Shown in pieces: positions 2,527 to 50,352 of a stretch of DNA of 64,000 bases. Source of the DNA: a virus. Made by a program: the position numbers and the translations under genes. The DNA lies in IMG/VR virus record IMGVR_UViG_3300032331_001766, positions 49,081 through 113,080 of that record. One strand, given 5' to 3'. Position 1 is the first letter of the stretch. The number at the start of each line of letters is the position of its first letter. The notes under the pieces are model-generated. The model worked only from the letters and a program-made list of their open reading frames with translations, was not told the DNA's origin and ran no database searches.

Positions 2527-4107
2527 ATGGAATTCATGCATGAAGAAGACTCACAAAATATTATTGATATTTCTAATACTGCAGACTGGTTTTCTTTTAA
2601 AAAAGAAATAACAACAAGCAACGACCCATTTGCTATAGACGTTGAAGAATTAAAAAAGTTTAAAGGTCTAAGCCCAGCATTTCGTAGAAAAATGAATCGT
2701 GATTTTTCAAAGTCATTTTCTGGAATTGATGGAGTTACAACACAACAGAATTTATTGGCTCAAGCAATTACTGGCTACGCAATGTTCGATCTTATCGAGC
2801 CACCATATAACCTAGAATACCTTTCAAAAATTTATGAAGTTTCAACATATAACTATGCTGCAATTAATGCAAAGGTCTCTAACATTGTTGGTTTAGGATA
2901 CGACTTTATTGAAACAAAAAAAACCAATGATGCGTTTGATGCAATAGAAGATGAAAAAGTTTTGGCTAGAGCACGTAAGAAGCTTGGTAAGCTTAGACAA
3001 GATATGCAAGAGTGGTTAGATACAACAAACGATGAAGATACATTTACTCAAACTTTAATTAAGGTCTATACAGATTTAGAAGCTACTGGAAATGGGTTCC
3101 TAGAAATTGGTAGAACGACATCAGGCAATATTGGTTACATTGGGCATATTCCAGCAAAGACAATGAGAATAAGAAGATTGCGTGATGGCTTTATTCAATT
3201 ACTTTATGGCAAGGCTGTGTATTTCCGCAACTTTGGAGACTCAGAAACATTGAGTCCAATTACTTCACAAGAAGAAAGACCTAATGAAGTTATTCATTTT
3301 AAAAAGTATACTCCTATGAATAACTACTATGGAATTCCAGACATCATTGCCGCACAGACAGCGTTGGCTGGTAACGAATTTTCTGGTAGATATAACCTAG
3401 ACTACTTTGAAAATAAAGCGGTCCCAAGATATATTATTACAGTAAAGGGAGCAAAGCTTTCACCAGAATCAGAAAGAAAACTTCTTGAGTTTTTTCAGGT
3501 TGGATTAAAGGGCAAAAATCACAGATCTCTTTACGTTCCGCTACCAGCAGATACCCCAGACTCTAAAGTTGAATTTAAAATGGAGCCAATTGAAGCTGGC
3601 AATCAGGAAGGCTCATTTGAGAAGTATCGCAAATCAAATAGAGACGAAATCCTATTAGCTCACCGTGTGCCAATTAATAAAATTGGAACCCCAGAAGGAC
3701 TAAGCCTGGCAAATGCTCGTGATGCAGATAAAACATTTAAAGAGCAAGTATGCCGACCAGCCCAAATGATTCTAGAAAAGAAATTAAATAGAATATTTGA
3801 AGAAAAAACAGATGCCCTTCTACTTAAATTTAATGAATTAACATTGACTGATGCAGATACTCAGTCTAAAATTGATGAGCGTTATTTAAGAATGCAGGTA
3901 ATTGTTCCTAATGAAGTTAGAATTAGAAATGGCTGGATCCCACTTGATGGCGGAGATAAAGTCATAGAATTAAAGCCTCAACAAGCAGCAGAACAATCAG
4001 CCCAGGCAGGCAAGACAAGAGCACGGGATGGTGAAAGAGCTGCAAATTCACCAGATAAATCTGGAGAAGGAAGAAATGCAAAAGGCGACGGGAGCAAGGT
4101 AGAGTAA
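2527..4107 (+). CDS. Portal protein
   Basis: DLEATGNGFLEI, NEVIHFK, YYGIPDI, YFENKAVP, ILLAHRVP and PNEVR motifs of HK97/PBSX-family portals; lies upstream of protease and capsid. Confidence 0.93.
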   Translation: MEFMHEEDSQNIIDISNTADWFSFKKEITTSNDPFAIDVEELKKFKGLSPAFRRKMNRDFSKSFSGIDGVTTQQNLLAQAITGYAMFDLIEPPYNLEYLSKIYEVSTYNYAAINAKVSNIVGLGYDFIETKKTNDAFDAIEDEKVLARARKKLGKLRQDMQEWLDTTNDEDTFTQTLIKVYTDLEATGNGFLEIGRTTSGNIGYIGHIPAKTMRIRRLRDGFIQLLYGKAVYFRNFGDSETLSPITSQEERPNEVIHFKKYTPMNNYYGIPDIIAAQTALAGNEFSGRYNLDYFENKAVPRYIITVKGAKLSPESERKLLEFFQVGLKGKNHRSLYVPLPADTPDSKVEFKMEPIEAGNQEGSFEKYRKSNRDEILLAHRVPINKIGTPEGLSLANARDADKTFKEQVCRPAQMILEKKLNRIFEEKTDALLLKFNELTLTDADTQSKIDERYLRMQVIVPNEVRIRNGWIPLDGGDKVIELKPQQAAEQSAQAGKTRARDGERAANSPDKSGEGRNAKGDGSKVE

Positions 4108-9879: not shown

Positions 9880-10572
9880 ATGGCAACATTTAATAATGCC
9901 AAGAACATTCTCGTAGGTGCTTCACCACTGTTCCTTTCAACAAAGGATTCAACTGATGGAACATACGCCGAGAACATGGAGCCAGGCTCATCAGCTGGAG
10001 TTGCATATCCATCAGCAGCATCTTATACAGATGCTTTGAACTCAGCAACAACAAAGTTTCGTAACGTAGGTTACACAAACAATGGTCTTCAGATTACTTA
10101 CAACCCATCATACGGTTCAGTAACAGTAGATCAGCTTCTTGATACAGCTAAGCTTTTCAAGGAGTCAATGGAAGTTATGATTGCAACAGAAATGACTGAA
10201 GGTACTCTTGAAAACGTACTAACAGTATTTGGTCAAGGATCTTCAACTCTTACAACTGAAGCTGGATACACATCAGGTACAGCTGAAGGAAAGAAGACAC
10301 TTGGTCTTGCAGCAGGAGCTCTCGGTGTTCAGCCAACAGAGCGTCAATTAATTGCAGTTGGTCAGTCACCAACAACAACTGATGGAACTAATACAGAAAG
10401 AACAGAGCGTATTTATTATGCACGTCGTGTTCTTTCAGTTCAGCAATCAGCATTCTCATTAGCACGTAATAATCCAACCACATTCCCAGTAACATTCCGT
10501 CTGCTTCCAGACGGCAATACAGCATACGCTGGCCAGGAATACGGTAAGATTATTGACCGTGTTATTGCATAA
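9880..10572 (+). CDS. Major tail (tube) protein
   Basis: NILVGASPLF, NVGYTNNGLQITY, VDQLLD and FPVTFRLLPD; strong SD; followed by a terminator, chaperones and the TMP. Confidence 0.88.
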   Translation: MATFNNAKNILVGASPLFLSTKDSTDGTYAENMEPGSSAGVAYPSAASYTDALNSATTKFRNVGYTNNGLQITYNPSYGSVTVDQLLDTAKLFKESMEVMIATEMTEGTLENVLTVFGQGSSTLTTEAGYTSGTAEGKKTLGLAAGALGVQPTERQLIAVGQSPTTTDGTNTERTERIYYARRVLSVQQSAFSLARNNPTTFPVTFRLLPDGNTAYAGQEYGKIIDRVIA

Positions 10573-10678: not shown

Positions 10679-11011
10679 TTGGCAACTACAGTATATGACG
10701 TAGAAGAAATTACGTTACAGAATGGCGCAACAGTTAACCTTAAGCCATTAACAATTAAAGAACTACGCAAGTTTATGGCTGCTATCTCCAAAACTGGAGA
10801 AGCAAAAACAGAAGACGAAACACTAACAATTCTTATTGACGCTTGTGCAGTAGCATTAGAAAAGCAATTACCAGAATTGGTAAAAGATCGTGACGCATTT
10901 GAAGATGTTTTAGACGTTCCTACCATCAACCGCATTCTTGAAGTTTGCGGAGGAATTAAGATGGACGACCCAAACCTTCTAGCGGCAGCGGTTCTGGCTG
11001 GTCAGAACTAG
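10679..11011 (+). CDS. Tail assembly chaperone (gpG-like)
   Basis: Lies between tail tube and TMP; TTG start after GGAGG; ends just past the slippery heptamer. Confidence 0.85.
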   Translation: MATTVYDVEEITLQNGATVNLKPLTIKELRKFMAAISKTGEAKTEDETLTILIDACAVALEKQLPELVKDRDAFEDVLDVPTINRILEVCGGIKMDDPNLLAAAVLAGQN

Positions 11012-11340
11012 ATTTAGCCGCTTTAGAGGGAGAAGTTTTTCTTTTAGGTAATTGGAAAAATTACGCAGAGATAGAAGAAAATCTTTCAATGCCAGAACTT
11101 ATTCAAACATTGAAGTCAATGCAAAAAACGGAATCAGAGAAAAGAAAATTTTTAGCTGGAATCCAAGGTGTTGATATAAATGATGAACAAGAAGAAAAAG
11201 AAGGTCCTACCTTTGAAGATATACAAAGAAGAGCACTTGGCATACATGCAAGCGGAGATGATATAACATCACTTCAAGGAGCATTAGCAGCACAAAGTGG
11301 ATTTGGTATCGGAGCTGGATTAGGATACACCAGGGAGTAA
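10679..11340 (+). CDS. Tail assembly chaperone, long form (gpGT-like) via -1 frameshift at 10969-10975
   Basis: C CCA AAC heptamer; the -1 frame is open from there through the 11089-11340 ORF (PSSGSGSGWSELDLAALEGEVFLLGNWKNY...MPELIQ). Confidence 0.85.
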
Positions 11341-11349
11341 AATAGATAA

Positions 11350-14300
11350 ATGGCTGATGAGCAAATTGTAACCAATATAGTTGCAACCTCAGATTTTTCA
11401 AGTCTCATTGCCGATGTGCAACGGACCACAGCAGCACTATCTAAATTACAGTCACAACTAGCTTTATCAAATACAGCATTAGCGAATCAGGCTGGCCAGA
11501 TACAAAAAGGTTTTGGAGAAACTCTAAGATCAACTGGCCAGTTTACTTCGCATTTTGTTACTGTTGGATCAGAGGTAGATAGATTTGGTAAAAGCCTTGA
11601 TTCTGGAAGATTAAAGTTAAGAGATTATTTTAAAACTTGGCAAGATCACACAAAAAGTTCTGGCGGATTAATTAGAGGTTTAGCAAAAGAACAGGTTGCA
11701 TTACAGCAATCTATAGTTCAATCGCTTGGTAAAACTGCAGATGGAATGCAGAAGTTTAACGTACACGTTAAGACTGGGCTAGATGAAGTAGCAAACAGAA
11801 CTGCATTAGCAAAGAAAGAAATGCAGATATACAACAAGGTTATTCAAGACGGCGGAAATCAAATTATTAACTGGGGTAAAAATACTCAGTGGGCTGGTCG
11901 TCAGTTAACAGTAGGACTCACAGTTCCAATAGCAGCATTTGGTGTGGCTGCATCAAAAGCATTTAGAGATGTTGACCAAGAGCTTGTTAGACTTACAAAG
12001 GTTTACGGTGGGCTTTCTGCAACTAGCGCAGTAGAGTTAGCTAAAGTTAGAAAAGATGTTTCTGCAACAGCTAAAGAATTAGCTGCAGCATATGGAGCGT
12101 CGTACAAAGATACAATTGCATTAGCAGCAGATATTGCAGCAACTGGTAAACAGGGCAACGAGCTGCTTCAGTCTACAAAAGAAGCAACAAGACTTTCTAT
12201 TCTTGGAGAAGTAGATAGACAAGAAGCTATGAAAGCAACTCTTGCAATTCAATCAGCATTTAAAAAGAATACAACAGAGCTTGGCAAATCAATTAACTTT
12301 CTTAACGCAGTTGAAAACCAAACCTCAACAAGCCTTGCAGATTTAGTTGAAGCTATACCAAAAGCTGGACCAGTAGTTAAAGCACTTGGCGGAGACATAG
12401 AAGATTTAGCACTTTATCTTACAGCTATGCGTGAAGGCGGAATTAACGCATCTGAAGGAGCAAATGCTTTAAAGTCAGCATTAGCATCTATCATTAACCC
12501 AACTAAAGTTGCTAAAGAAATGTTTCAAGGATTTGGAATTGATTTAGGTGGGATAGTAACAAAAAATGCTGGAAACTTAACAGGAACTATATTAGAGATT
12601 CAAGCAGCATTAGAAACACTAGATCCTCTTAAGAAATCACAGGCAATTGAGCAGTTGTTTGGTAAGTTCCAGTTTGCAAGAATGAATGCTTTATTTGAGA
12701 ATTTGGGTAAGCAGGGTAGCCAGACTTTACAGGTATTAGATTTAATGAAAGCAAGCTCACAAGATCTTGCAAATGTGGCTGGACGAGAATTAGCACAAAT
12801 TACTGAGTCTGCTTCTGGTAAATATAGAAGAGCATTAGAGTCATTAAAGGCAGACTTAGCTAAAGTAGGAGAGCAGTTCTTAACAATTCAAACATTCTTT
12901 ATTGAATTAGTAGATAAAATAATTAACTTTGTAAACAAATTACCAGAGCCTATTCAAAAAGTTCTTACATTGCTAGCTGGATTCACTGCAGCAGCGGGTC
13001 CACTTATTATGTTAACTGGTGTATTTGCTAACTTCTTTGGATATGTAATTAAGGGAATTGGCCATCTAAGAGCTTTATTTAAGGGCGGCGAAGGATTTAA
13101 ATTATTAACACCTCAAATAATAGCTGCAAATCAAGCTGGAAGTTTAATAGAAAAAACATTTTATAGCGATGCTCAAGCAGCAGCGACATTAGCTAATGCC
13201 CTAAGTAATTTAAATAATGAATTTAATCTTCTATACAATAAAGCAAACAACATTGCGCCAGTAGCACCAGCAATTTCAACAATGGCAAGCACCATGATGT
13301 TGCCAGGCGGAGCAACAGAAAGAGTTGTAAATAAGCAAAGCTCAATGCTAGGCAAGCCTTATTCAAGAGATATGTCTCATATGATTCCTTCAAAAACTGG
13401 ACAAGCAGGAACAATGTTTGGAGTTCTTCCTGGAACTGCTCCAGTAAATAAAAGAATTAGTAATAACCCACAGATCTATGCAGCAGGAGATTTGCCAGAT
13501 GTTCCTGGATTAACTAATGTTAATAAAGTTTCAACAGGTGTTGTAGCAGCAGAAGCTGCTAAATGGCACTCAATGACTGCAGCAATTGCAATGCAATCAG
13601 ATGCAGAACTTACAGCATTGAAACAAGAAGTTGCTGCAACTGGAACAATTACACATGAATTGTCTTCTTCATACCAGGCATTGTTGCCTAAGATGACTGA
13701 AGTTATTCAGAAAGCTGTTAAAGAATCAGAGTTAATTGTTGCTCAGACACAATCTGGTAAAATAACGTTAGATCAAGCAAGAGCAAAAATCACTGCGCTT
13801 AATGCACAAATAGAAACATTATTAGCATCAACAGCACAAGGAGTTGCAACAGCACAGGGAAGATCTATTAATGTTGGAATGGTTCCATTAACAAATCAAC
13901 CAGCTGTATCTCCAACTGGCAAGAGCAACATGAAAGAAATGTTCCACAAGAGTGCTAACGCAAATCTTATTAATAAAATAGCTGGCGTACTTGGAGTAAG
14001 AACTTCAGGCGGAGGATACAGCACTGAAACAACAATGCCAAAGAGATTTGCAGAAGGTGGATTTGTACCAGGAACTGGAAACACAGATACTCATCCAGAT
14101 TCACTACCTGCTGGATCTTATGTTGTAAATAAAAAGTCTTCTGAAAATCCTATGTATAGACCTATACTTAGAGCAATGAAAACTGGAATTAGATTTAGCA
14201 AGGGTGGAGAAGTACCAGTCGTACTAACACCAGGAGAGTTTGTTGCTGACCCACAAACAGCAAGAGAAAACGCACCAGTTCTAAGATCTATTAATGCTGG

Positions 14301-17300
14301 TAATTATGCTGTTGGCGGAACAGTAAGTATGAATAAAGTTAACTATGGAATTTCACCAAACAAGCAAAGAGTAAAGAGCCCAGCAATCATTGAAGATGCT
14401 TTAGCTAAAGTTATTGCATTTAACACAGATAAAAACTATGCTAAAAATAATTATACTGGTGCAGTATTAAATGACTCATGGGCAATATATGATGCAATAA
14501 CTTCTGCAACTGGAAGACCAGCAGATCCAAAAGAAGCAATTTCAATTGCAGAAGCAATGGAAGAAGAAGCAAGATCAGCATCGACCTTTGGCGGAGTGCT
14601 AGATGAAAATGAATATCGTAAAGTCGCTAAAGAACAGATGACTACATGGAAAAAGAAACTTAAAGAACAGTATCCTTCTATAAGACTTACAAGTTCTAAC
14701 AAAAGACAAAATGCAACTGATCCAACTGTCAGAAAATTAATTTATGCAATGATGCTTAAGGATAAAAGATTTAGTAGAGATTACCTAAAAACGCTAGATG
14801 TTTCTGAAGGCGGAAATGCAGTAAGAGCACACAGAGATCAGCTTTCTCAGTCTAAGAATAAGAATAATCCTTATAAGTATTTAAGAGCAGCCGTTGTTAC
14901 TCCAACAAATGTTAATTATGAAAGTAAGCAACTTCAGGATTATTATGGTATGGAAAACTATGAAGATAGAGTTTCTGCTGGACCAGTTCGTGCAGAGCAA
15001 GATGCAAAAAAGCTTCTTAAAGGTGTTGGTTTTAATTCACTTTCTTCATACGAAAAATATTTAAAAGAAAAGAAAGAAAAAAAGGAAGCAGCAAAGAAAC
15101 CTAAAAAGTATAAAGAGTTTTTAGCAGCAAGAACTTTAGGCAAGCCAGCGTTGTTTACACCAGCGTTTGCAGGAGCTATTAGAAGAAATAAGGGCGGAAT
15201 AATACCTGGACTAGCATCATCTGTTATTAATAGACTAACTAATAGATGGCCTGGTAAAAAGCAATTCTATCCACAGGGCTACCAGTACATGCTTGGTAAT
15301 CAAGATCCACTTCATGGTCCACTTCAAATTGGAATGTCACAACAACTTGCAAGACATTCTGGGTATGATCCAAAAGATGTATCACTTCAAAGAGGTGTTG
15401 TATTTAGAGATGATAGGTTTAGTAGATTAAACATTATGCCTCAGTTCCTTACTGGAACAGCAGAAGACCGTGGCAGATATGCAACATCACAATACATGTC
15501 TGGAAACCTAGATATTATGGGACAAATGGAAAGATTGGGTAATCACCCTCTCGGACCAATTGCTGCAATGAAAACTCAACAGAAAAAGTTTAGCGGAAAA
15601 TTATTTAGAGGAATTAAATTAGATAGAACATTTAAGGGTCTGCCAGAAGATTTAATTGAAGCAATTAAAATGGCAAGAGTTACTGGAGATGCTTCACCTT
15701 TAATTGGCAAAGAATTCATTATGCGCCGATCATCTTGGAGCAAGAGCCAAAACATAGCAAGCTACTTTGCGCCAGGGAAAAATGTAGACCCAGAATCATT
15801 GCTTATAGAAGCTGCTGTAAAAAATAGAAATATTTTACCAGCAGGAGACATGTTCCCAGATAAAGTTTTCCAGGCTCCAGGAGGACAAAATTGGGGCGGT
15901 GGAAGATTTAATAATGGATATAGATCAGAACAAGAAGCAATATTTGGTGGCAAGTTTAAGATAGTAGGATTTGATAAAGGCACTCTTCAGGTACAAACAG
16001 TTGTCGATGGAGCAAGAGAAGATGGCGGACCAACACAAGCTGGCAAGTCTTATATAGTTGGAGAAAATGGTCCAGAAATATTTATTCCAGAAACAAATGG
16101 AAATATAGTTCCAAATGCTGGAGTAAGCGGATCTAGAAAAACAGGCGCTATGGTTGCAAACTATGGTGCAAGCATGGCTGGGTATGGAATTGCAAGCAAG
16201 TTAGCTCCAGGAAATATGTTGGCACAAATTGGTGGCGGATTATTAGGCGATGTAGCTGGAAATATGATGTACAACAAGATAATGAATATTGGTCAAGCAG
16301 CTGGATCAGCAGCAAACAAAACTTCATTATTAACAAAAGCTTTCCAATTCTTTATTAAGATGCCTGGACCAGTTAAGTTACTTGCTGCAATTGCTGGAGT
16401 AGGAATGGCAATTCAAGCAGTCAATAAAAAAATTGAAGAGCATAGAAGAATTGTTAATTCAGCATTTGGATTAGAGGCTTCAACTGTAGCAAAGCTTGGA
16501 CTACAGTACACAACCCTTGAAGATAAGATGAAGGATTATCGCAAGGCACAAGATTTAGCAAATGCTTCTGCTGCAGCGTTTAAATATACTACAGATAAAG
16601 TTGGCGGAGCTCAAGGAATAGATATGACTCAAGAAGAGCTAGATGCTCTTAAGAAGTCATCAAAGAAAGATTTTAAAACAGAAATATCAATGTTTAATAC
16701 AGCAGGCGGGAATGAAGTTATTCAAAAAGCTACACAGCTTAAAGCAATGTTTGTATCATCTGGAATGGCAGTACAGGATGCAAATGAATTAATTTATGCA
16801 TTAATATTAAACTCTAATAAGGCAGAAAGCGCATTAACCGCACTTGGAGACAAAGGATTTGGTTCAATTCAAGATAAGGGTACAGCAGCAGCAGCAACAC
16901 TTAAAACATACTACTCCGTTATTGCAAAAGGAAATACTGATCAAATTGGTAAATCCGTTGATTCCGCATTAAATGCATATATAAATCTAGAGACATCTTT
17001 AGTTAATATAAATGATAAGACAAAGCCTATTGTAACTGAATCAGAGGCATACCTAAAGGTTCTTAATAAAATAAAAAATAGCAATGCTGGGAATGCAGAG
17101 TTAGGTGATGAAATTTATCTAGCACTTTCTAAGCAGAATGCTGAGCTTGGTAAGATAATAAATACCACAGACACATTTGCATCTGTAATGGCAAAGGTTA
17201 AATTAAGTACTTCAGGCCTTTCGTTAGACCTTGCAAATATGGGATCATCTGCTGCAACTGCTCTTTCAATAGTAGTATCAAAGCAACAAGATACTCTAGG

Positions 17301-18789
17301 ATCAACAACTGGCCCCTTTGCCAAGCTTGCAAGAGATATTCAAAACACTGGAAAAGCAAGTGCTGATCAAATTGTAAAAACTTCACAGATTTCTGCAGAT
17401 GCATTAAATAAGCAGATAGATTTACATAATAAGAATATAAAAAAGATTAAAGAAGAAGCGGATGCCAGAAAGAAGGCATTAGACGAACAGCTTTCAGATG
17501 AGACAACATTACTTCAAATTAAAAAGAAGCAGATGGAATATGCTGATGCAGTTGCCGCTGGAGATATGTCTAGAGCTGCACAAGCGCAATTAGATATACA
17601 GGCTTTAACAAGAGCTCAAGAAGTTACTGTAGCAAAGCGATCAATTGACGACAAGGCTGAAAAAGATATTAAGGCTCAAGAAGCTGCAATTGATGCGTTA
17701 AATAAAAAGCTTGATGGACTTCAAAAAACAGTAAATGCTGCACAAGCAAATGCATCTGCTGCACAAAAGAAATCTGCTGACCTTCAGTCAATGATGGATG
17801 AACTAGTTGCATTAACTGTAGCTGGAGCGGATGGAGTTGACTCAAAAGAATCTGCACGTAGAGATGCACTTGTAAATAAATTAACAAAGGCTGGATATAA
17901 AGATATTGCTTCTAAGATAACAGGAGCAGTTGGCGGAAGATACGAAGGCAGCACGTTTGTTCCTTCAGGAGATAAGTTAGCAGAATTAAGCAAGGGTTCA
18001 TTTAATGATGCATATAATGCTTCAAAGAAAGCTTTGGCAGTTTACATAACAGATCCAGAAACAATAGCTTTATTAGGTGGATTAGGAAAGGGAGAGACTC
18101 CTGGATTCCAGCCACCAAAGGGAACACCAAAAACTCCTATTATTAATCCTAAAACTCCAGTAAAAGATGTTTCAAAAGAAAAGACAATTCTTGATGCAGC
18201 AAAAGCTGCAGCTGGTGGGAAAAAACAAACAACAATGGTTAGCATTAATGATATTGCTTATGAGATATTTAAGTACGGCAACTCACAGTATTTGATGCCA
18301 AAGGGCACAAGCGGAAGTGAAATTTATGAATACCTATTTGCAAATGGAGCAGTTACTAGAGGTAAACGAGTAACTGACTTAAAGAGAAACTATAGCATAG
18401 GTGGACTAGTATTTGGAGCAGGAACTGCAACATCTGATTCAATACCAGCAATGCTTTCAAATGGAGAATATGTAATTAATGCTGGAGCAGTAAGTGCATA
18501 CGGCAAAGAAGTATTTGATCAATTTAATAGTAGAAAGTTTGCTACTGGAGGAATGGTTAATCCTTCATTTAGTGTTCCTTCTGGAGCAGTCTCACTTGGC
18601 AATAACATGGGTTCACGATATAATGGTGGAGGACAGGTTTACAATTACAGCGCAGGAGGAATTGTCATTAATCCAGCGCAAGGACAAAATGAAAAACAAA
18701 TTGCAGAATACGTAGTTTCAATTATGGATGCAAAAAATGGCTTAAGAGCAGCAAGCACTGGAGATAAAGGACGGTACCTAAGAACATGA
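11350..18789 (+). CDS. Tape measure protein with embedded ADP-ribosyltransferase-like domain
   Basis: 2479 aa, helical, after the chaperones; TP901-type core (QWAGRQLTVGLTVP...EGANALKS); internal LFRG/SSWS/EQE motifs; GG..GAGTATSDSIPAMLSNGEYV near the C-terminus. Confidence 0.93.
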   Translation: MADEQIVTNIVATSDFSSLIADVQRTTAALSKLQSQLALSNTALANQAGQIQKGFGETLRSTGQFTSHFVTVGSEVDRFGKSLDSGRLKLRDYFKTWQDHTKSSGGLIRGLAKEQVALQQSIVQSLGKTADGMQKFNVHVKTGLDEVANRTALAKKEMQIYNKVIQDGGNQIINWGKNTQWAGRQLTVGLTVPIAAFGVAASKAFRDVDQELVRLTKVYGGLSATSAVELAKVRKDVSATAKELAAAYGASYKDTIALAADIAATGKQGNELLQSTKEATRLSILGEVDRQEAMKATLAIQSAFKKNTTELGKSINFLNAVENQTSTSLADLVEAIPKAGPVVKALGGDIEDLALYLTAMREGGINASEGANALKSALASIINPTKVAKEMFQGFGIDLGGIVTKNAGNLTGTILEIQAALETLDPLKKSQAIEQLFGKFQFARMNALFENLGKQGSQTLQVLDLMKASSQDLANVAGRELAQITESASGKYRRALESLKADLAKVGEQFLTIQTFFIELVDKIINFVNKLPEPIQKVLTLLAGFTAAAGPLIMLTGVFANFFGYVIKGIGHLRALFKGGEGFKLLTPQIIAANQAGSLIEKTFYSDAQAAATLANALSNLNNEFNLLYNKANNIAPVAPAISTMASTMMLPGGATERVVNKQSSMLGKPYSRDMSHMIPSKTGQAGTMFGVLPGTAPVNKRISNNPQIYAAGDLPDVPGLTNVNKVSTGVVAAEAAKWHSMTAAIAMQSDAELTALKQEVAATGTITHELSSSYQALLPKMTEVIQKAVKESELIVAQTQSGKITLDQARAKITALNAQIETLLASTAQGVATAQGRSINVGMVPLTNQPAVSPTGKSNMKEMFHKSANANLINKIAGVLGVRTSGGGYSTETTMPKRFAEGGFVPGTGNTDTHPDSLPAGSYVVNKKSSENPMYRPILRAMKTGIRFSKGGEVPVVLTPGEFVADPQTARENAPVLRSINAGNYAVGGTVSMNKVNYGISPNKQRVKSPAIIEDALAKVIAFNTDKNYAKNNYTGAVLNDSWAIYDAITSATGRPADPKEAISIAEAMEEEARSASTFGGVLDENEYRKVAKEQMTTWKKKLKEQYPSIRLTSSNKRQNATDPTVRKLIYAMMLKDKRFSRDYLKTLDVSEGGNAVRAHRDQLSQSKNKNNPYKYLRAAVVTPTNVNYESKQLQDYYGMENYEDRVSAGPVRAEQDAKKLLKGVGFNSLSSYEKYLKEKKEKKEAAKKPKKYKEFLAARTLGKPALFTPAFAGAIRRNKGGIIPGLASSVINRLTNRWPGKKQFYPQGYQYMLGNQDPLHGPLQIGMSQQLARHSGYDPKDVSLQRGVVFRDDRFSRLNIMPQFLTGTAEDRGRYATSQYMSGNLDIMGQMERLGNHPLGPIAAMKTQQKKFSGKLFRGIKLDRTFKGLPEDLIEAIKMARVTGDASPLIGKEFIMRRSSWSKSQNIASYFAPGKNVDPESLLIEAAVKNRNILPAGDMFPDKVFQAPGGQNWGGGRFNNGYRSEQEAIFGGKFKIVGFDKGTLQVQTVVDGAREDGGPTQAGKSYIVGENGPEIFIPETNGNIVPNAGVSGSRKTGAMVANYGASMAGYGIASKLAPGNMLAQIGGGLLGDVAGNMMYNKIMNIGQAAGSAANKTSLLTKAFQFFIKMPGPVKLLAAIAGVGMAIQAVNKKIEEHRRIVNSAFGLEASTVAKLGLQYTTLEDKMKDYRKAQDLANASAAAFKYTTDKVGGAQGIDMTQEELDALKKSSKKDFKTEISMFNTAGGNEVIQKATQLKAMFVSSGMAVQDANELIYALILNSNKAESALTALGDKGFGSIQDKGTAAAATLKTYYSVIAKGNTDQIGKSVDSALNAYINLETSLVNINDKTKPIVTESEAYLKVLNKIKNSNAGNAELGDEIYLALSKQNAELGKIINTTDTFASVMAKVKLSTSGLSLDLANMGSSAATALSIVVSKQQDTLGSTTGPFAKLARDIQNTGKASADQIVKTSQISADALNKQIDLHNKNIKKIKEEADARKKALDEQLSDETTLLQIKKKQMEYADAVAAGDMSRAAQAQLDIQALTRAQEVTVAKRSIDDKAEKDIKAQEAAIDALNKKLDGLQKTVNAAQANASAAQKKSADLQSMMDELVALTVAGADGVDSKESARRDALVNKLTKAGYKDIASKITGAVGGRYEGSTFVPSGDKLAELSKGSFNDAYNASKKALAVYITDPETIALLGGLGKGETPGFQPPKGTPKTPIINPKTPVKDVSKEKTILDAAKAAAGGKKQTTMVSINDIAYEIFKYGNSQYLMPKGTSGSEIYEYLFANGAVTRGKRVTDLKRNYSIGGLVFGAGTATSDSIPAMLSNGEYVINAGAVSAYGKEVFDQFNSRKFATGGMVNPSFSVPSGAVSLGNNMGSRYNGGGQVYNYSAGGIVINPAQGQNEKQIAEYVVSIMDAKNGLRAASTGDKGRYLRT

Positions 18790-26241: not shown

Positions 26242-29200
26242 ATGGGAATGTTTTTAAAAGATTCTTCAGGAACATTTAGAAGTATTCCAAAAATATTTTT
26301 AAAAAACTCTGATGGCACATGGAGAGGTGTAGTTTCTGCCTACTTAAAAGATTCACTAGGAACATGGAGACTATTTTTTGGTGCAGAATACTTAAACCCT
26401 TCTGTGCTATTTGAGCCAGCTTTAGTATCAAATGACTCCATTGGTAGATTTAAGCAAGGCTCGACTTTAAGTTTAGATAGAGGTATATGGGACGGAAGCC
26501 CAACATCATATTCTTTAACAATTCAAGGTACTTTAGATAGTGGCGCTACCTGGACTGATTTTGCAACAGGATCTGGAACAAGTGTAACTTATCTTTTAAA
26601 TATAAGTGATGTGATGTATCCTTCATATTCATTTAGAGGTAAAGTAGTTGCAACAAATACTTATGGGTCTACAACTTTTTATACATTAATAACACCATCA
26701 ATATTAAGTTTGCAAATAAATGGAATCGTATCTTTACCAACTCAAAATGGAGCAACATTCTCTTGGACAGTAAATCCTTCAACTTCAGGATATAGAGCTT
26801 CCCAAAGAATAGAATTTTATTCAGTTTCAAATCCGTCGGTAACTCCAGTATATACATATAATGTTCCTACTAATTCAGCAAACTCTGCAGTAGTAAGCAA
26901 TGCAGCTCTTACTACATCAACACAATATAATGCTGTCATAAAAATTGTTTCTTTAGATAGCTCTAATACAGTTAACTTTAGCAGCGATATATTATTTACT
27001 ACAGCATCTTCTTTGGTAAATACAGTTGCTCCATCAATTACTGGAACAAAACAAGAGGGACAAACAGTCACAGCTAATCCAGGAACCTGGTCTGGAAATG
27101 GAACAATTACTTATGCATATCAATGGCAGTATGCAGTGCAAACTGCTGGATCTAATTATTCTTATTATGATATACCAGGAGCTACTGGAAGCACTTACTT
27201 TATACCTTATAACTATAATGAAACATATGTTGATAAGGGAATAAGGCTAAAGGTTACAGCAACTACAGTAGATACTCCAGGAGGAGTAATTGCTTATTCT
27301 CAAAGCTATGCAGTTGCAGATTTTGCAGTTCCAGTTGGAACAGATGATACAGTTACATTTTCACGAGATTCTTCCAGTAATTATAATTTTTCAATAACAA
27401 ATACAGGAACTTGGACTGGTACTCCAACATCTTATAGATACCAATGGTATACATACGAGTCAACATTTGGAGGAAACTATTCCTGGTTTCCAGTATCTGG
27501 AGCAACATCTAGTACATTTAATGCTTCAGGAGTAAAGTTATTTGAAATTATGCCAATTGTTTGGGCTTCAAATCCTGGAGGAGAAAGCGATACTGGATAC
27601 AGTTTAACTAATACAAATGGAACTAGACCTGCTGGTAACATAGGATCTATATCTGCAGCTGCAACACAGGTAGTAAAATATACCGCTCCAATCATTGGTT
27701 CTTTTTCTGTTACTGGTGGAGCTGGATCTATAACATATAGTTATTCCGTAACTGGAGATGATCCAACCAAAACATTAGCAATATCTTATTCTGGTGCAGC
27801 TACAGGTAGTTTTACTCCAGCAGCAAGCGGATCTACGCAGACTGGTCTGGCCGCAGGAACATATAACTTTGTTTTAACTGCAACAAACTCCGTAAGTGGA
27901 AATAGTTATTTTGTAACATCAACAGTTGCAAATATTATTGTAACAGCACCACTAACAGCTCCAGTAAATACTTTAGCCCCAGCAGTAACTCCAGTAACTG
28001 GAACAGCTGGAGTAACAACATACACTTCAACAACTGGAACATGGACTGGAAACCCAACACCAACTTATGCTTATCAATGGCAAACCAACGATCAAGGTTC
28101 TTTGTGGGTTTCTATATCTGGAGCAACTTCATCTACATATTCTCCAGCTAGTAATTATACTTCTGTATATAATAATACATTAAGGTGCAGAGTTACTGCA
28201 ACAAATAGCCAAGCTAGCGTTGCTGCATTTTCTAATGAAGTTGTAGTTAATACACCTCAATATACAGTTACATATGATTATCAATCAGCCACAGGAGGAA
28301 ATACAACAGCTTCTGCTACTGTAAATGCTGGTTCATCAACATCTCTTCCAACCCCAACTAGAACAAATTACACATTTGGTGGATGGTATACAGCAATTAC
28401 TGGTGGTACATTTATTGGAAACGGGGGATTTGCTTATACTCCAACAGCAAGCATTACTTTATATGCAAGATGGACAGCCATAAACTGGACAGTGAGTTGG
28501 GATGCAAATGGTGGAACCGTTAGCCCAACATCAAACACTGGAATACAGGGTTCAACAGTAACTGCGCCAACACCTACCCGTACAAACTTTACATTTTTAT
28601 ACTGGAGAGATTCTTTATCTGCAGTAAGCTATCTGTATCAGCTAAGCGCAGGCGGAACATGGACACAATCACAAACTATAACATTCTATGCTTGGTGGCA
28701 ACAAATTACATATGTTGTTACCTATAATGCTAACAGTGGAACCGTTAGCCCAGCATCTGCAACAGTAAATGCTGGATCTGCAACAACGCTTCCTACTCCA
28801 ACAAGATCTGGGTTTACATTTAATGGATGGTATACAGCAGCATCTGGGGGAACCTTAGTAGGAGCAGCAGGAGGATCCTATACACCAACTGCAGCAATTA
28901 CACTATATGCACAATGGACTGCAGTAGTAGTTAACTACACTATGACTTGGAGAGCAAATGGTGGTTCTAGCGGAGATCAAACAACAGGGCCGTTTGCATC
29001 AGGCAGTGCACATACTGCACCAAGCCCAGGAACAAGGGCTGGATACACATTTGCTGGTTACTACGACACAGCTTCTTTAGATTTTACAGTTGGGCCAATT
29101 GCATCTGGTGGAACTTATACTCCAACAGCTAATACCACACTACAGGCAAGATGGACTGCAATAGTTCCGAGCATTACTCAAATTGTTGTTTCTGGAAACG

Positions 29201-29523
29201 TAACTGCGGGAGTTACATGTGCAGTTACTGGGACAAATATGGGCTCTATACAGTATACATTTTATGCCAGAGATACAGGCACAAGCGCTTGGACTCAAAT
29301 TTCTGCTGGTACTGCAGCTCCATCTAGCGCAACATCTGCAAGCATTTCTACAACTGGTTCTGTAGGAACTTTGCCAGATCAATACTATGTTGATATGCAG
29401 CCATTTTTTGGAGCAAGATCTACATCTGGAGCTAATGGGGGAACTGGAACTGCTGGTACGCTAAGATCTACATCTGGAAGTCCAAAAAATAATCAATCAG
29501 GATCGGTAACGGTAAACTTCTAA
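26242..29523 (+). CDS. Virion adhesin/fibre with Ig-like and InlB B-repeat (Listeria-Bacteroides repeat) domains
   Basis: Repeated NTxAPxxTG...GTWxG...YAYQW modules, then four YxVTYxANGG...PTPTRxxYTFxGWY...TLYARW repeats (about 28261-29160). Confidence 0.75.
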   Translation: MGMFLKDSSGTFRSIPKIFLKNSDGTWRGVVSAYLKDSLGTWRLFFGAEYLNPSVLFEPALVSNDSIGRFKQGSTLSLDRGIWDGSPTSYSLTIQGTLDSGATWTDFATGSGTSVTYLLNISDVMYPSYSFRGKVVATNTYGSTTFYTLITPSILSLQINGIVSLPTQNGATFSWTVNPSTSGYRASQRIEFYSVSNPSVTPVYTYNVPTNSANSAVVSNAALTTSTQYNAVIKIVSLDSSNTVNFSSDILFTTASSLVNTVAPSITGTKQEGQTVTANPGTWSGNGTITYAYQWQYAVQTAGSNYSYYDIPGATGSTYFIPYNYNETYVDKGIRLKVTATTVDTPGGVIAYSQSYAVADFAVPVGTDDTVTFSRDSSSNYNFSITNTGTWTGTPTSYRYQWYTYESTFGGNYSWFPVSGATSSTFNASGVKLFEIMPIVWASNPGGESDTGYSLTNTNGTRPAGNIGSISAAATQVVKYTAPIIGSFSVTGGAGSITYSYSVTGDDPTKTLAISYSGAATGSFTPAASGSTQTGLAAGTYNFVLTATNSVSGNSYFVTSTVANIIVTAPLTAPVNTLAPAVTPVTGTAGVTTYTSTTGTWTGNPTPTYAYQWQTNDQGSLWVSISGATSSTYSPASNYTSVYNNTLRCRVTATNSQASVAAFSNEVVVNTPQYTVTYDYQSATGGNTTASATVNAGSSTSLPTPTRTNYTFGGWYTAITGGTFIGNGGFAYTPTASITLYARWTAINWTVSWDANGGTVSPTSNTGIQGSTVTAPTPTRTNFTFLYWRDSLSAVSYLYQLSAGGTWTQSQTITFYAWWQQITYVVTYNANSGTVSPASATVNAGSATTLPTPTRSGFTFNGWYTAASGGTLVGAAGGSYTPTAAITLYAQWTAVVVNYTMTWRANGGSSGDQTTGPFASGSAHTAPSPGTRAGYTFAGYYDTASLDFTVGPIASGGTYTPTANTTLQARWTAIVPSITQIVVSGNVTAGVTCAVTGTNMGSIQYTFYARDTGTSAWTQISAGTAAPSSATSASISTTGSVGTLPDQYYVDMQPFFGARSTSGANGGTGTAGTLRSTSGSPKNNQSGSVTVNF

Positions 29524-47287: not shown

Positions 47288-47821
47288 ATGTCTGAAATAG
47301 AGCCAGCAGTACACTTTGATAGAATGAACAAGGTAGTTGAAGAACTACTGAAGGGTAACTCTGCTAGCCAAATAGCAACGCTTACTGGGTTTTCCCGCAA
47401 AGAAGTACTTGAGTTCATTGATGAGTGGAAGTCTGTAGTACACAATGATACAAGCCTTAGAGACCGTGCTAAAGAAGCAATATCTGGGGCTGATCAACAT
47501 TACGCTATGATGATTAAAGAAGCCTGGAAAACCGTAGAAGATGCTGACACACAAGGCCAGCTTAATGTTAAAGCTGGAGCATTAAAGTTAATTGCTGATA
47601 TTGAAACAAAAAGAATTGGTATGCTTCAGTCGGTAGGCGTAATTGAAAATAATGAGCTTGCATCGCAGGTTGCTGAGGCTGAAAGAAAACAAGAGATTTT
47701 AGTAAAGATACTTAAAGAGGTAACTTCTTCATGCCCTAAATGTAAGATGGATGTAGCCAAAAGATTATCACAGGTTACTGGAGTAGTAGAGCCTATATTT
47801 ATAGATTCGGAAGTTTCATGA
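47288..47821 (+). CDS. HTH protein, probable terminase small subunit
   Basis: N-terminal HTH (LKGNSASQIATLTGFSRKEV), helical body and CPKC; upstream of TerL. Confidence 0.55.
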   Translation: MSEIEPAVHFDRMNKVVEELLKGNSASQIATLTGFSRKEVLEFIDEWKSVVHNDTSLRDRAKEAISGADQHYAMMIKEAWKTVEDADTQGQLNVKAGALKLIADIETKRIGMLQSVGVIENNELASQVAEAERKQEILVKILKEVTSSCPKCKMDVAKRLSQVTGVVEPIFIDSEVS

Positions 47822-50352
47822 CAGAAACATTTAAAAGAAGATTATTTATTTTTGATTTAGATGGTGTTTTGGTTGATAGTAAAAAAATACATTTTAATTC
47901 TTTAAATACAGCATTAGAAAAAATTGATCCAAAATATTTAATATCTGAAGAAGATCAGTCAACTATGTTTGAAGGCCTTCCCACTAAAGAAAAGCTAAAA
48001 CTATTAACTAGTTTACGTGGTTTACCAGAAGAGCTTTATGAAAAAATATGGGAAGAAAAACAAAAGCAATCTATAGTATATTTTAAATCTTTAGAAAAAG
48101 ATAAAGAACTTATAGAACTTTTTAAAATAATTAAAGAGTATCATGTTGATATAGCAGTCGCAAGCAACTGCATAAGGGAGACCGTTGAAGCATGTCTTAC
48201 ATCATTAGGATTAATTGATCTAGTTGGCTTATATTTAAGTAATGAAGATGTAGTACAACCAAAACCAAACCCAGAAATTTATACAAAATGTATAAGTCAT
48301 TTTGTGTGTCATCCAAACTATACAACCATATTTGAAGATAGTCGTGTTGGAAAAATTGCAGCTATTGCAAGTGGAGCACGTTTAATAGGCATAGAGAATA
48401 GAAGCTCTATAAATAAAGAAACTATTTTTAAAGCATTAAATGAAGAAAGAAGAAAAATAAATGTATTAATTCCTATGGCTGGCGAAGGCTCTAGATTTAC
48501 AAAAGCTGGTTATAAAGATCCAAAACCAATGATAGATGTAAATGGTAAATCTATGATTAACCTAGTACATGATAATATTAATTTAGATGCTCATTATATT
48601 TTTATTGCAAAAGATGAACACGTAGTTAAATATAATTTAGAAGATCATATTAGTTCATTTTGTAGTAACTATACAATTATAAAACAAGAAGGTAGACTTG
48701 AGGGTGCAGCAAAAACTGCTTTACTTGCTAAAGATCTTATAAGTAATCAAGATCATTTATTGATTGCAAATTCAGATCAGTATATAGATTGGGATAGTAG
48801 TAAAACTATAAATGATTTTATAAGGTCTGGAGTAGATGGTGCTATATTAACTTTTAAAGCAACAGAAGAAAAATGGTCTTATATTAAAGAAAATGATGGC
48901 ATAGTAGAAGAAGTATTTGAAAAAATAGTTGCAAGCGATAATGCAACTTGCGGTGTATATTTTTGGAAATATGGATCTGATTTTATTAAATATGCAGAAA
49001 AAATGATTGAAAAAAATATTAGAACAAATAATGAGTTTTATATATGTCCAGTTTATAATCAAGCTATTGAAGATCAAAAAATTATTTCTTTTTCTGAAGT
49101 AAAAGAAATGCATGGCTTAGGTACACCAGAAGATTTAGATTCTTATTTAAAATATTTAGATATAAGAACTGATATTAGAAATAAAAATTACACAGAAAAA
49201 ATATTTGAAATATCTGAAGATGAATTTTTTGTTAAATATAAAAATCCAGAGTATGAGATATATGATAGAGAATTATCAAATAATCCTGGATATAAGTATT
49301 ATGACTATGATGCTGAAATGGTTAAACTTCCAGATGCCACACTACTTGAAAAATATCAAGAGCGCACACGTAGATGGGTTTTAAATCCAATAGTGACTAA
49401 AATTCATAATTCTAATGAGGTTTCTTATTTAGAAAGATCAGTATATCTTGTGCCATATCATACAAGATTTTTTCATGTTTATTTAGAAATTCTTCCAAAG
49501 ATTTTTATTTTAAAAGAAAAAGATCCTAACTTTAAACTTATAATGTTTCATGATGAAGAATTAAATGAAGATAAAATTTTTCCAAGTTTATTAGGCAATT
49601 ATAATAAAAAAAATGGAAGAGAATCCGACGGTAGAGCTTTAAAGTTTTGGTTAGATAAACTAAATATAGACTATGAATGTATAAATTTAGAAACCTTAAA
49701 GGATTATAATTTAAAGTTTAAATATTCATATGTATTTTATGAAGCTATTAGAAATCAAAATTTAATGGATATTGCAAAAAAATATGATGAAAAATTTTTT
49801 AATGGTCCAATAGTATATAAAGATTTAAAAAAATATCATCCACATGAGATATTACAAAGAGGAGATTCTAGCGTAGATGTAGGTACAAATAGATATTTAA
49901 AAAAAGCAATAAATGATTTTATTAATATAAATAATTTAGATGTAAAAAATGAAAATAAAAAAATATATATATCTAGAAAAAATTATGTTAGATCTCACAA
50001 AAATGAAAAAGATATAGAAAACTACTTTATTTCAATTGGATACGAATCCGTATGCTTGGAAGACTTTGATCCAATAGAGCAAATACAAATATTTAGAAAG
50101 TCATCAGATATAGTTTGTTATTTAGGATCATCTATAATAAATGCATATTTTATAAATCATGAAGCTAAACTAACCATATTGGCATTAGATTCAGATAGCG
50201 ACGCAGAGTTTAATAAAAATATGCTTGGATACTATAGTATGCAAATTCAAGATCAAAAAATCAATAAAAAATTTATAAACATACCTCAATTTTTTAATGA
50301 TGATGTAAGTCATTTCTTTAATAAAGAATTGGAGAAAAATAATGGAGTTTGA
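47818..50352 (+). CDS. Fusion protein: HAD phosphatase + sugar-phosphate nucleotidyltransferase + GT61-like glycosyltransferase
   Basis: FDLDGVL, KPNPEIY and FEDS (HAD); LIPMAGEGSRF..PKP, ANSDQ, NEFYICPVYN and GLGTPEDL (NTP transferase); FFHVYLEILPK, KIYISRK, EQIQIF and GSSIINAYF (GT61/DUF563-like). Confidence 0.8.
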   Translation: MTETFKRRLFIFDLDGVLVDSKKIHFNSLNTALEKIDPKYLISEEDQSTMFEGLPTKEKLKLLTSLRGLPEELYEKIWEEKQKQSIVYFKSLEKDKELIELFKIIKEYHVDIAVASNCIRETVEACLTSLGLIDLVGLYLSNEDVVQPKPNPEIYTKCISHFVCHPNYTTIFEDSRVGKIAAIASGARLIGIENRSSINKETIFKALNEERRKINVLIPMAGEGSRFTKAGYKDPKPMIDVNGKSMINLVHDNINLDAHYIFIAKDEHVVKYNLEDHISSFCSNYTIIKQEGRLEGAAKTALLAKDLISNQDHLLIANSDQYIDWDSSKTINDFIRSGVDGAILTFKATEEKWSYIKENDGIVEEVFEKIVASDNATCGVYFWKYGSDFIKYAEKMIEKNIRTNNEFYICPVYNQAIEDQKIISFSEVKEMHGLGTPEDLDSYLKYLDIRTDIRNKNYTEKIFEISEDEFFVKYKNPEYEIYDRELSNNPGYKYYDYDAEMVKLPDATLLEKYQERTRRWVLNPIVTKIHNSNEVSYLERSVYLVPYHTRFFHVYLEILPKIFILKEKDPNFKLIMFHDEELNEDKIFPSLLGNYNKKNGRESDGRALKFWLDKLNIDYECINLETLKDYNLKFKYSYVFYEAIRNQNLMDIAKKYDEKFFNGPIVYKDLKKYHPHEILQRGDSSVDVGTNRYLKKAINDFININNLDVKNENKKIYISRKNYVRSHKNEKDIENYFISIGYESVCLEDFDPIEQIQIFRKSSDIVCYLGSSIINAYFINHEAKLTILALDSDSDAEFNKNMLGYYSMQIQDQKINKKFINIPQFFNDDVSHFFNKELEKNNGV

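Follow-up and report, generated by a model that had tools for sequence, protein, structure and literature searches.

We analysed a 64-kb stretch of viral DNA, called the window throughout, and found that its tape measure protein (TMP) contains a predicted ADP-ribosyltransferase (ART) domain of the R-S-ExE class. The window is the right-hand part of a 113,080-bp IMG/VR virus record rated complete by CheckV, and its source is an uncultured freshwater siphovirus-type phage (G+C content of the stretch, about 36%). An earlier reading of the DNA letters, hereafter the sequence-only reading, had placed an ART domain inside this TMP, and the predicted fold, the invariant catalytic residues and the identity of the carrier protein now agree in its favour. 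On balance, we favour the view that this embedded cassette, with its C3/VIP2/HopU1-like predicted fold, is delivered with the tail contents and modifies the host before the phage genes are expressed. The enzyme class and the strategy of delivering an ART in the virion are known, and what is new is the carrier, a TMP, together with the sequence clade. Full-text searches of the literature brought up no account of an ART within a TMP.

The only phage ARTs known to work from the outset of infection are packaged in the head: T4 Alt and, by inference, the MuF-VIP2 fusions. If the favoured view is correct, an NAD-dependent enzyme in the tail protein that leaves first would represent a second route of pre-expression host take-over. 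Part of a siphovirus TMP would then also reach the cytoplasm, an open question in DNA-ejection biology. The question is testable because the cassette is optional between near-identical phages, which provides natural pairs with and without it (loci L076 and L077). The domain further represents a sequence-orphan ART clade that is missed by current hidden Markov model (HMM) libraries.

Identity of the carrier protein

The TMP is encoded by a single uninterrupted open reading frame (ORF) of 2,479 amino acids (aa) at window positions 11350-18789. This gene, its parts and the tail genes immediately ahead of it are all on the plus strand. Pfam family PF10145 (PhageMin_Tail) matched aa 239-438 with an E-value of 2.9e-28, and eleven PHROG tape-measure families matched the ORF, the best being PHROG 10030 (E 4.7e-124). 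No gene of the tail module is larger; the tail tube and chaperone genes precede it, and the distal tail genes follow. Signature and gene position thus both identify the ORF as a tape measure protein. The departure from the helical pattern that the sequence-only reading had noticed in the centre of this protein is also borne out by composition. In blocks 1301-1400 and 1501-1600, the combined fraction of A, L, E, K and Q was 0.25-0.28 and that of G and P 0.19-0.26, compared with 0.4-0.5 and about 0.08, respectively, in helical parts of the TMP.

Predicted fold of the domain

An AlphaFold2 model of TMP aa 1265-1570 was built from an alignment of the domain with 40 homologues (alignment A1). Its mean predicted local distance difference test score (pLDDT) was 74, with values of 86-95 in the core. 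A Foldseek search of the PDB at an E-value of 1e-3 or less returned ARTs exclusively (Vis, C3, Certhrax, CDTa, HopU1 and Tre1). Upon re-scoring by VIA-align, 50 of 50 among the matches listed were ARTs, with Z-scores from 9.1 to 7.3. Model residues 106-288, corresponding to TMP aa 1370-1552, were aligned over 128-172 residues, most rows having a root-mean-square deviation (rmsd) of about 3.0-4.3 A. The best structural matches were HopU1, C3, Certhrax, iota Ia, CDTa, Vis, VIP2 and SpvB (Z 9.1-8.1, rmsd 3.3-4.0 A over 133-152 residues).

We also searched 48,161 representative PDB chains without a filter and independently of Foldseek, and ARTs occupied all of ranks 1 to 24 (Z 9.1 to 4.8). They included HopU1, a Listeria ART effector, Certhrax, C3, Vis, CPILE-a, Tre1, VIP2 and SpvB, as well as C2-I, an Rhs toxin, XopAI, ExoS, ART2.2, the ART-like domain of anthrax lethal factor and SidE/SdeA. 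Unrelated folds began after rank 24, at Z of 3.9 or less. An ART fold, on which the sequence-only reading had made its case depend, was therefore what AlphaFold2 and the structure searches returned. That reading had taken the motifs as the signature of cholera-toxin-like ARTs, a group in which it named VIP2 and T4 Alt/Mod. The nearest folds were of the C3, VIP2 and HopU1 type (Z 8-9), not those of cholera-type enzymes. As heat-labile enterotoxin (LT) and pertussis toxin scored a Z of only about 2.8-2.9, we place the domain in the C3/VIP2-like branch.

The model also contains the architecture expected of an ART, with a split beta-sandwich core following a helical segment. This segment precedes strand 1 and carries a Y-x-x-G-[DN]-Y pattern, located ahead of the Arg strand in the alignment. 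The R, S and ExE motifs map to predicted strands 148-159, 191-200 and 265-278 (model numbering), each either within its strand or at one end of it, where ARTs of the R-S-E class carry them. Among the predicted viral structures of BFVD, named matches were mostly phage ARTs, comprising free-standing enzymes, MuF or portal fusions and ModA/Alt types; none of the named BFVD matches was called a tape measure protein.

Catalytic residues and parts of the cassette

Conservation was examined in an alignment of the domain only, comprising 45 distinct sequences from IMG/VR loci with 35-77% identity (alignment A2). The domains of all 45 relatives are located inside giant TMPs. R1420, S1462, E1527 and E1529 were invariant in 45 of 45 at a mean column identity of 43%. 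A pattern of R, SxS and ExE could by itself arise by chance; this degree of invariance against such a diverged background shows that here it did not. Independent indexing placed the LFRG, SSWS and SEQEA motifs at exactly the coordinates given by the sequence-only reading. R1420 (15607-15609) is the Arg of a [LF][FYH]RG motif on strand beta-1 (LFRG, aa 1418-1421), that is, of an aromatic-R-G sequence. S1462 (15733-15735), at the end of predicted strand 191-200, is the first Ser of an S-[WF]-[ST] motif that takes the place of S-T-S in variant form (SSWS, aa 1461-1464, from nucleotide 15730). The residue after this Ser is Trp in 42 relatives and Phe in three, and the next one is Ser in 43 and Thr in two.

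The ExE motif, E1527-Q-E1529 (15928-15936; E1529 from nucleotide 15934; EQEA, aa 1527-1530), is at the start of predicted strand 265-278 and conforms to the (Q/E)-x-E form. It is preceded by a variable loop (aa 1513-1526; 15886-15927) at the position of the ADP-ribosylating toxin turn-turn (ARTT) substrate-recognition loop. Among the 45 relatives the loop varies in length from 5 to 16 residues, and its pLDDT of 56 is the lowest in the core. Such behaviour fits that expected of an ARTT specificity loop.

These elements belong to a catalytic core of 183 residues (aa 1370-1552; 15457-16005), delimited by the model residues that align to ARTs. The core is part of a larger optional cassette of about 275 residues (aa 1279-1555; 15184-16014), which extends from an RNKGG motif to just before an REDGG motif and was delimited by comparing locus L076 with L077, L102 with L112, and the window with L062. 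The range of about aa 1279-1560 proposed earlier fits this cassette, the catalytic core proper being narrower. Between the start of the cassette and the core lies an N-terminal sub-region (aa 1279-1369; 15184-15456) that is conserved along with the cassette. Its pLDDT was about 50-56 in the domain model, and it reached a mean pLDDT of 59 and a predicted template-modelling score of 0.27 when folded alone. This sub-region contains the motif N-x-D-P-x-H-G-x-L-x-I-G (aa 1317-1328; 15298-15333), in which the residues N, D, P, H, G, L, I and G show no variation in alignments A2 and A3. Of 74 loci that bear the ART, 71 have the motif, 117-137 aa upstream of the FIMRRSSW strand; all 63 ART-less loci lack it.

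The cassette is optional and lies in a mosaic region

Scanning IMG/VR with the first 600 residues of the TMP yielded 550 related loci, the best 80 of which (69-94% identical) were checked for the ART. It was present in 17 and absent from 39 complete TMPs, the other 24 loci ending at a contig edge before the answer became visible. Aligning the TMPs of relatives thus answered the question, raised by the sequence-only reading, of whether the domain is swapped or absent: the cassette is optional. About 57 of the roughly 550 loci sharing the TMP N-terminus carry the ART, and a tree of the N-terminal 900 residues requires at least three gains or losses to explain its presence.

Direct comparison of near relatives reveals how the two states differ. 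In L076 (TMP of 2,417 aa, with the ART) and L077 (2,134 aa, without it) the DNA on both sides of the central segment is about 94-96% identical, and the difference between them is a replacement of that segment (nucleotides 12703-14638 of L076 versus 12703-13747 of L077). L102 (with the ART) and L112 (without it) share the module upstream of the cassette. L062 possesses about 68 aa in place of the residues corresponding to TMP 1120-1555. Directly 3' of the cassette is an R-x-x-GG ... VGE-x-GPE module (here REDGG followed by VGE-x-GPE at aa 1556-1576; 16015-16110) with weak matches to PHROG 1538/30701 and NCBIfam NF047706. The VGE-x-GPE module also occurs in the ART-less L062, L120 and L071, where it follows unrelated sequence. 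In a more distant TMP lineage, whose N-terminus is 37-40% identical, the cassette is located near the C-terminus, between two copies of the C-terminal GG module (P0008 and P0022).

Pairwise BLASTP and a module map indicate that the cassette is part of a mosaic central region of exchangeable modules (aa ~945-1555; 14182-16014). The N-terminal ~940 aa are about 65% identical to those of relatives, and homology is then lost until aa ~1555-1690. Within this region, the part ahead of the cassette (14182-15183; aa ~945-1278) was compared among L060-L139, and at least 10 unrelated module types were found at aa ~960-1260 in close relatives. These upstream modules combine freely with the ART, the same module being found with it (L102, L114 and L006) and without it (L092, L112 and L077). 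Neither the upstream patchwork modules nor the central modules of ART-less relatives gave a Pfam match. A comparison of the cassette edges for direct DNA repeats yielded chance-level matches only.

The TMP also contains recurrent x-x-x-GG modules (14047-14330, 16015-16110 and 18391-18660), two of which bracket the ART cassette. Some of them continue with D-S-[IL]-P-A...G-E-[FY]-V or with V-G-E-x-G-P-E.

Occurrence and host

When 1.84 billion representative proteins were searched exhaustively by HMMER, with aa 1265-1570 as the query, 43 homologues were recovered, most of them TMP-like and 1,200-3,700 aa long. The search provided no convincing free-standing homologue; three short matches resemble either fragments or the C-terminus of the TMP lineage in which the cassette is near the end. 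The domain had no match in 50,697 cultured-phage records, and two peptide patterns detected no prophage copy in the GTDB species genomes. Large shares of the stretch are contained in contigs of several freshwater metagenome studies, and this TMP group is an abundant freshwater phage group. No RNA dataset was found among the listed sequencing runs.

The host is probably an actinobacterium, as inferred from a WhiB-family gene (PF02467, E 1.7e-13, above the cut-off) located outside the window (G000:C1:1154-1327, locus L140). Among 14 control genomes, PF02467 matched Corynebacterium only. The actinobacterial host guessed by the sequence-only reading gains support from this gene. The nearest cultured TMP N-termini are those of Streptomyces and Gordonia phages, at about 36% identity.

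Comparison with known systems

The domain resembles the toxins C3, VIP2/iota Ia/CDTa/C2-I, Certhrax, Vis, HopU1 and SpvB in predicted fold, including the helical segment before strand 1. As in C3/VIP2-type toxins, strand beta-1 bears an Arg, the core strand after it has a Ser motif, and a variable loop leads to ExE. However, sequence identity to these toxins is only 8-17%, and their S-T-S is replaced by S-[WF]-[ST]. An additional conserved N-terminal sub-region of about 90 aa with the NxDPxHGxLxIG motif also distinguishes the domain from them. Moreover, those toxins are secreted or injected by a bacterial system, whereas the present domain occupies a central position within a structural protein of a phage.

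A parallel in concept is provided by T4 Alt, which is packaged in the capsid and injected with the DNA, together with ModA and ModB: the R-S-ExE class is the same, and a virion-borne ART would be available before phage gene expression. The carriers differ, being the head for T4 Alt and the tail tape measure here. T4 Alt is present in more copies per virion than a TMP. In studied phages the TMP amounts to three to six copies per virion, with six in Ur-lambda (PMC12617516).

MuF-VIP2 fusions of Microbacterium, Gordonia, Mycobacterium and Stenotrophomonas phages are similar in that an optional ART is fused to a virion protein. Such a fusion can differ even between close relatives, Percival possessing it and Floof lacking it (PMC7302621), and gp16 of AXL1 has been detected in virions (PMC9206674). 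In those fusions, however, the ART is C-terminal on a head protein and matches VIP2/PF03496 by sequence, whereas the domain described here is internal, flanked on both sides by TMP sequence, and a sequence orphan. Nor does it have the arrangement that defines MuF polymorphic toxins, an N-terminal MuF/SPP1 gp7 domain with a C-terminal toxin, as its carrier is a TMP and the ART is internal. Peptidoglycan hydrolase motifs in the TMPs of TM4, phiIPLA35, T5 (pb2) and others (cited in PMC12617516) offer another likeness, that of a catalytic module embedded in a TMP and brought by tail ejection. Such hydrolases work on the cell wall outside the membrane, whereas an ART needs NAD+ and hence access to the cytoplasm.

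Proposed mechanism and points against it

In the reading that we favour, the domain would be catalytically active, use NAD+ and be carried inside the tail lumen within the TMP, in a few copies per virion. The TMP would leave the tail and thereby expel the ART ahead of the DNA. Upon reaching cytoplasmic NAD+, the ART would modify one or more host proteins, most likely at arginine because of the invariant ExE motif, with the variable loop before ExE setting the choice of target. Host take-over or counter-defence would start before any phage gene is expressed. On this reading, an enzyme that modifies the host probably enters the cell already made, together with the tail contents of the phage. In the literature, virion-packaged ARTs are known (T4 Alt and the MuF-VIP2 fusions; PMC7302621, PMC9206674), the lambda TMP is located in the tail lumen in six copies, and several TMPs carry peptidoglycan hydrolases (PMC12617516).

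The sequence-only reading had also relied on two hydrophobic TMP segments on either side of the domain, and a Kyte-Doolittle analysis located both. The first is at aa 537-571 (12958-13062; peak of 1.85 in a 19-aa window), and the second, with a Gly-rich stretch ahead of it, is at aa 1667-1695 (16348-16434; peak 1.57). The topology that was deduced from them is a weak argument because the segments are about 1,100 aa apart and enclose more than the ART.

Several observations weigh against the favoured reading. Several copies of a folded domain of about 20 kDa would fit only tightly into a tail lumen of about 4 nm, and the domain may need to be stored partly unfolded. Searches with the TMP or the excised domain gave no ART match in Pfam, NCBIfam, PHROGs or PDB sequences, and an HMM of the domain alignment had no match among PDB chains. 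PF03496 (ADPrib_exo_Tox; gathering score 23.4 bits) did not match this TMP at an E-value of 10 or less, including in a six-frame search of the genome, and was reached by just three of the 45 relatives, at an E-value of about 0.07. An hhalign comparison of alignment A2 with the single T4 Alt sequence, a weak template, gave a probability of 0.33, too low to establish a sequence relationship. The ART assignment accordingly depends on a predicted structure with a middling Z of about 9 and an rmsd of about 3.6 A, and the Trp or Phe that replaces Thr in the aligned S-T-S motif is unusual. In addition, the documented roles of TMPs are those of a conduit across the envelope and a carrier of cell-wall hydrolases, and the transport of cytoplasmic enzymes is not among them (PMC12617516). 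By the Pfam threshold the domain is outside PF03496; we regard it as a divergent clade that shares the fold class but is an orphan in sequence. The leads obtained from the ESM Atlas (DUF4765, PF03496 and Mod_ADP_RT clusters, 0.81-0.85) were all below the threshold, and we do not count them as evidence.

Alternative explanations

One alternative is that the domain is not an ART at all. The R, SxS and ExE motifs are short, and models that lack a clear match are quoted as having a background Z of 7-8, which the value of about 9 exceeds only moderately. Chance motifs combined with an artefactual fold would nevertheless have to account for 24 consecutive top ART matches in the unfiltered search followed by a sharp drop, for three motifs that are invariant and on the correct strands, and for the Y-x-x-G-[DN]-Y pattern in the helical segment before strand 1. 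We regard this explanation as barely credible. Only slightly more plausible, and still very improbable, is an ART-derived but catalytically dead module that would act, within the tail lumen or the trans-envelope conduit, as a structural spacer, a plug or a binding domain. The lack of a curated ART HMM match, the atypical S-T-S motif and the many TMP inserts without a known enzymatic role would be in keeping with such a module. Dead enzymes, however, usually lose their catalytic residues, and here Arg, Ser and both Glu are retained in all 45 sequences at 35-77% identity. An essential structural role is likewise contrary to the 39 complete TMPs of close relatives that do without the cassette.

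If the enzyme is active, its place of action or its substrate might still differ from those we favour. It could work late in infection in the producing cell, its ride in the virion being incidental or purely structural. TMPs are made late, in a cytoplasm that holds the co-substrate NAD+, and the documented TMP-borne enzymes work in the cell wall (PMC12617516). The genome was searched for an ADP-ribosylhydrolase or macro-domain gene that could switch the ART off, and none was found, which would leave the enzyme active already in the producer. For a late function, however, a free-standing gene would do, yet the domain is seen inside TMPs only, and this location is kept even in another TMP lineage that carries it at another position. 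Such an exclusive and retained location argues for selection for physical coupling to an ejected protein, and we consider action in the producing cell unlikely. To a similar degree we doubt that the domain uses NAD+ on a substrate other than protein arginine (DNA, RNA or a small molecule), or acts mainly as an NAD+ glycohydrolase, for example against NAD-dependent defence. The R-S-E scaffold is shared by the nucleic-acid-targeting Scabin (Z 3.5) and the small-molecule-targeting Arr (Z 3.4) in the fold search, and the unusual Trp/Phe in S-x-S together with the conserved extra N-terminal sub-region leaves room for an atypical substrate. By contrast, the best matches (Z 8-9) are all protein-modifying enzymes, namely HopU1, C3, Certhrax, iota/CDTa/VIP2, SpvB, ExoS/T and Tre1. 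An invariant ExE is characteristic of the ARTs that modify protein arginine, such as iota, C2, VIP2, ExoS, ART2 and T4 Alt, and likewise counts against an atypical substrate.

Delivery of an active ART with the tail contents can be extended to a broader and more speculative proposal, which we put forward tentatively. The TMP centre may be a polymorphic cargo bay, a phage counterpart of the Rhs, CdiA and MuF polymorphic toxins, in which modules bounded by xxxGG are swapped by recombination between near-identical phages. Among these cargoes would be the ART, which would enter the host cytoplasm before the DNA and disarm or reprogram the cell while no phage gene has yet been read. The NxDPxHGxLxIG motif could in that case be a cargo-specific release or translocation device.

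Neighbouring genes and other observations

The gene order in the tail module is portal (2527-4107), tail tube, two small ORFs and TMP, followed by large downstream ORFs. The tail tube protein gene (9880-10572) has a weak match to PF25681 (Phage_TTP_17, E 6e-4, under the curated cut-off) and is directly upstream of the chaperone-like ORFs and the TMP gene. The two small ORFs (10679-11011 and 11089-11340, together spanning 10679-11340) gave no match in a Pfam search and are assigned by position, which is that of tail assembly chaperones.

In L076, about 0.6 kb of extra DNA relative to L077, upstream of the TMP gene and between virion genes, contains an ORF of 216 aa (L076:4605-5255). It is absent from L077, which is about 94% identical in other respects, and, apart from a short flanking match, from the window. 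By its motif this ORF looks like a free-standing homing endonuclease, and it does not look related to the ART.

Downstream of the TMP gene, a 1,093-aa protein (26242-29523) contains four Listeria-Bacteroides repeat domains (PF09479, E 1.8e-37) and is probably a tail fibre or adhesin. Farther along the window, the G+C fraction dips to 0.256 at 48001-50000, within an 844-aa ORF (47818-50352), its surroundings being at about 0.35.

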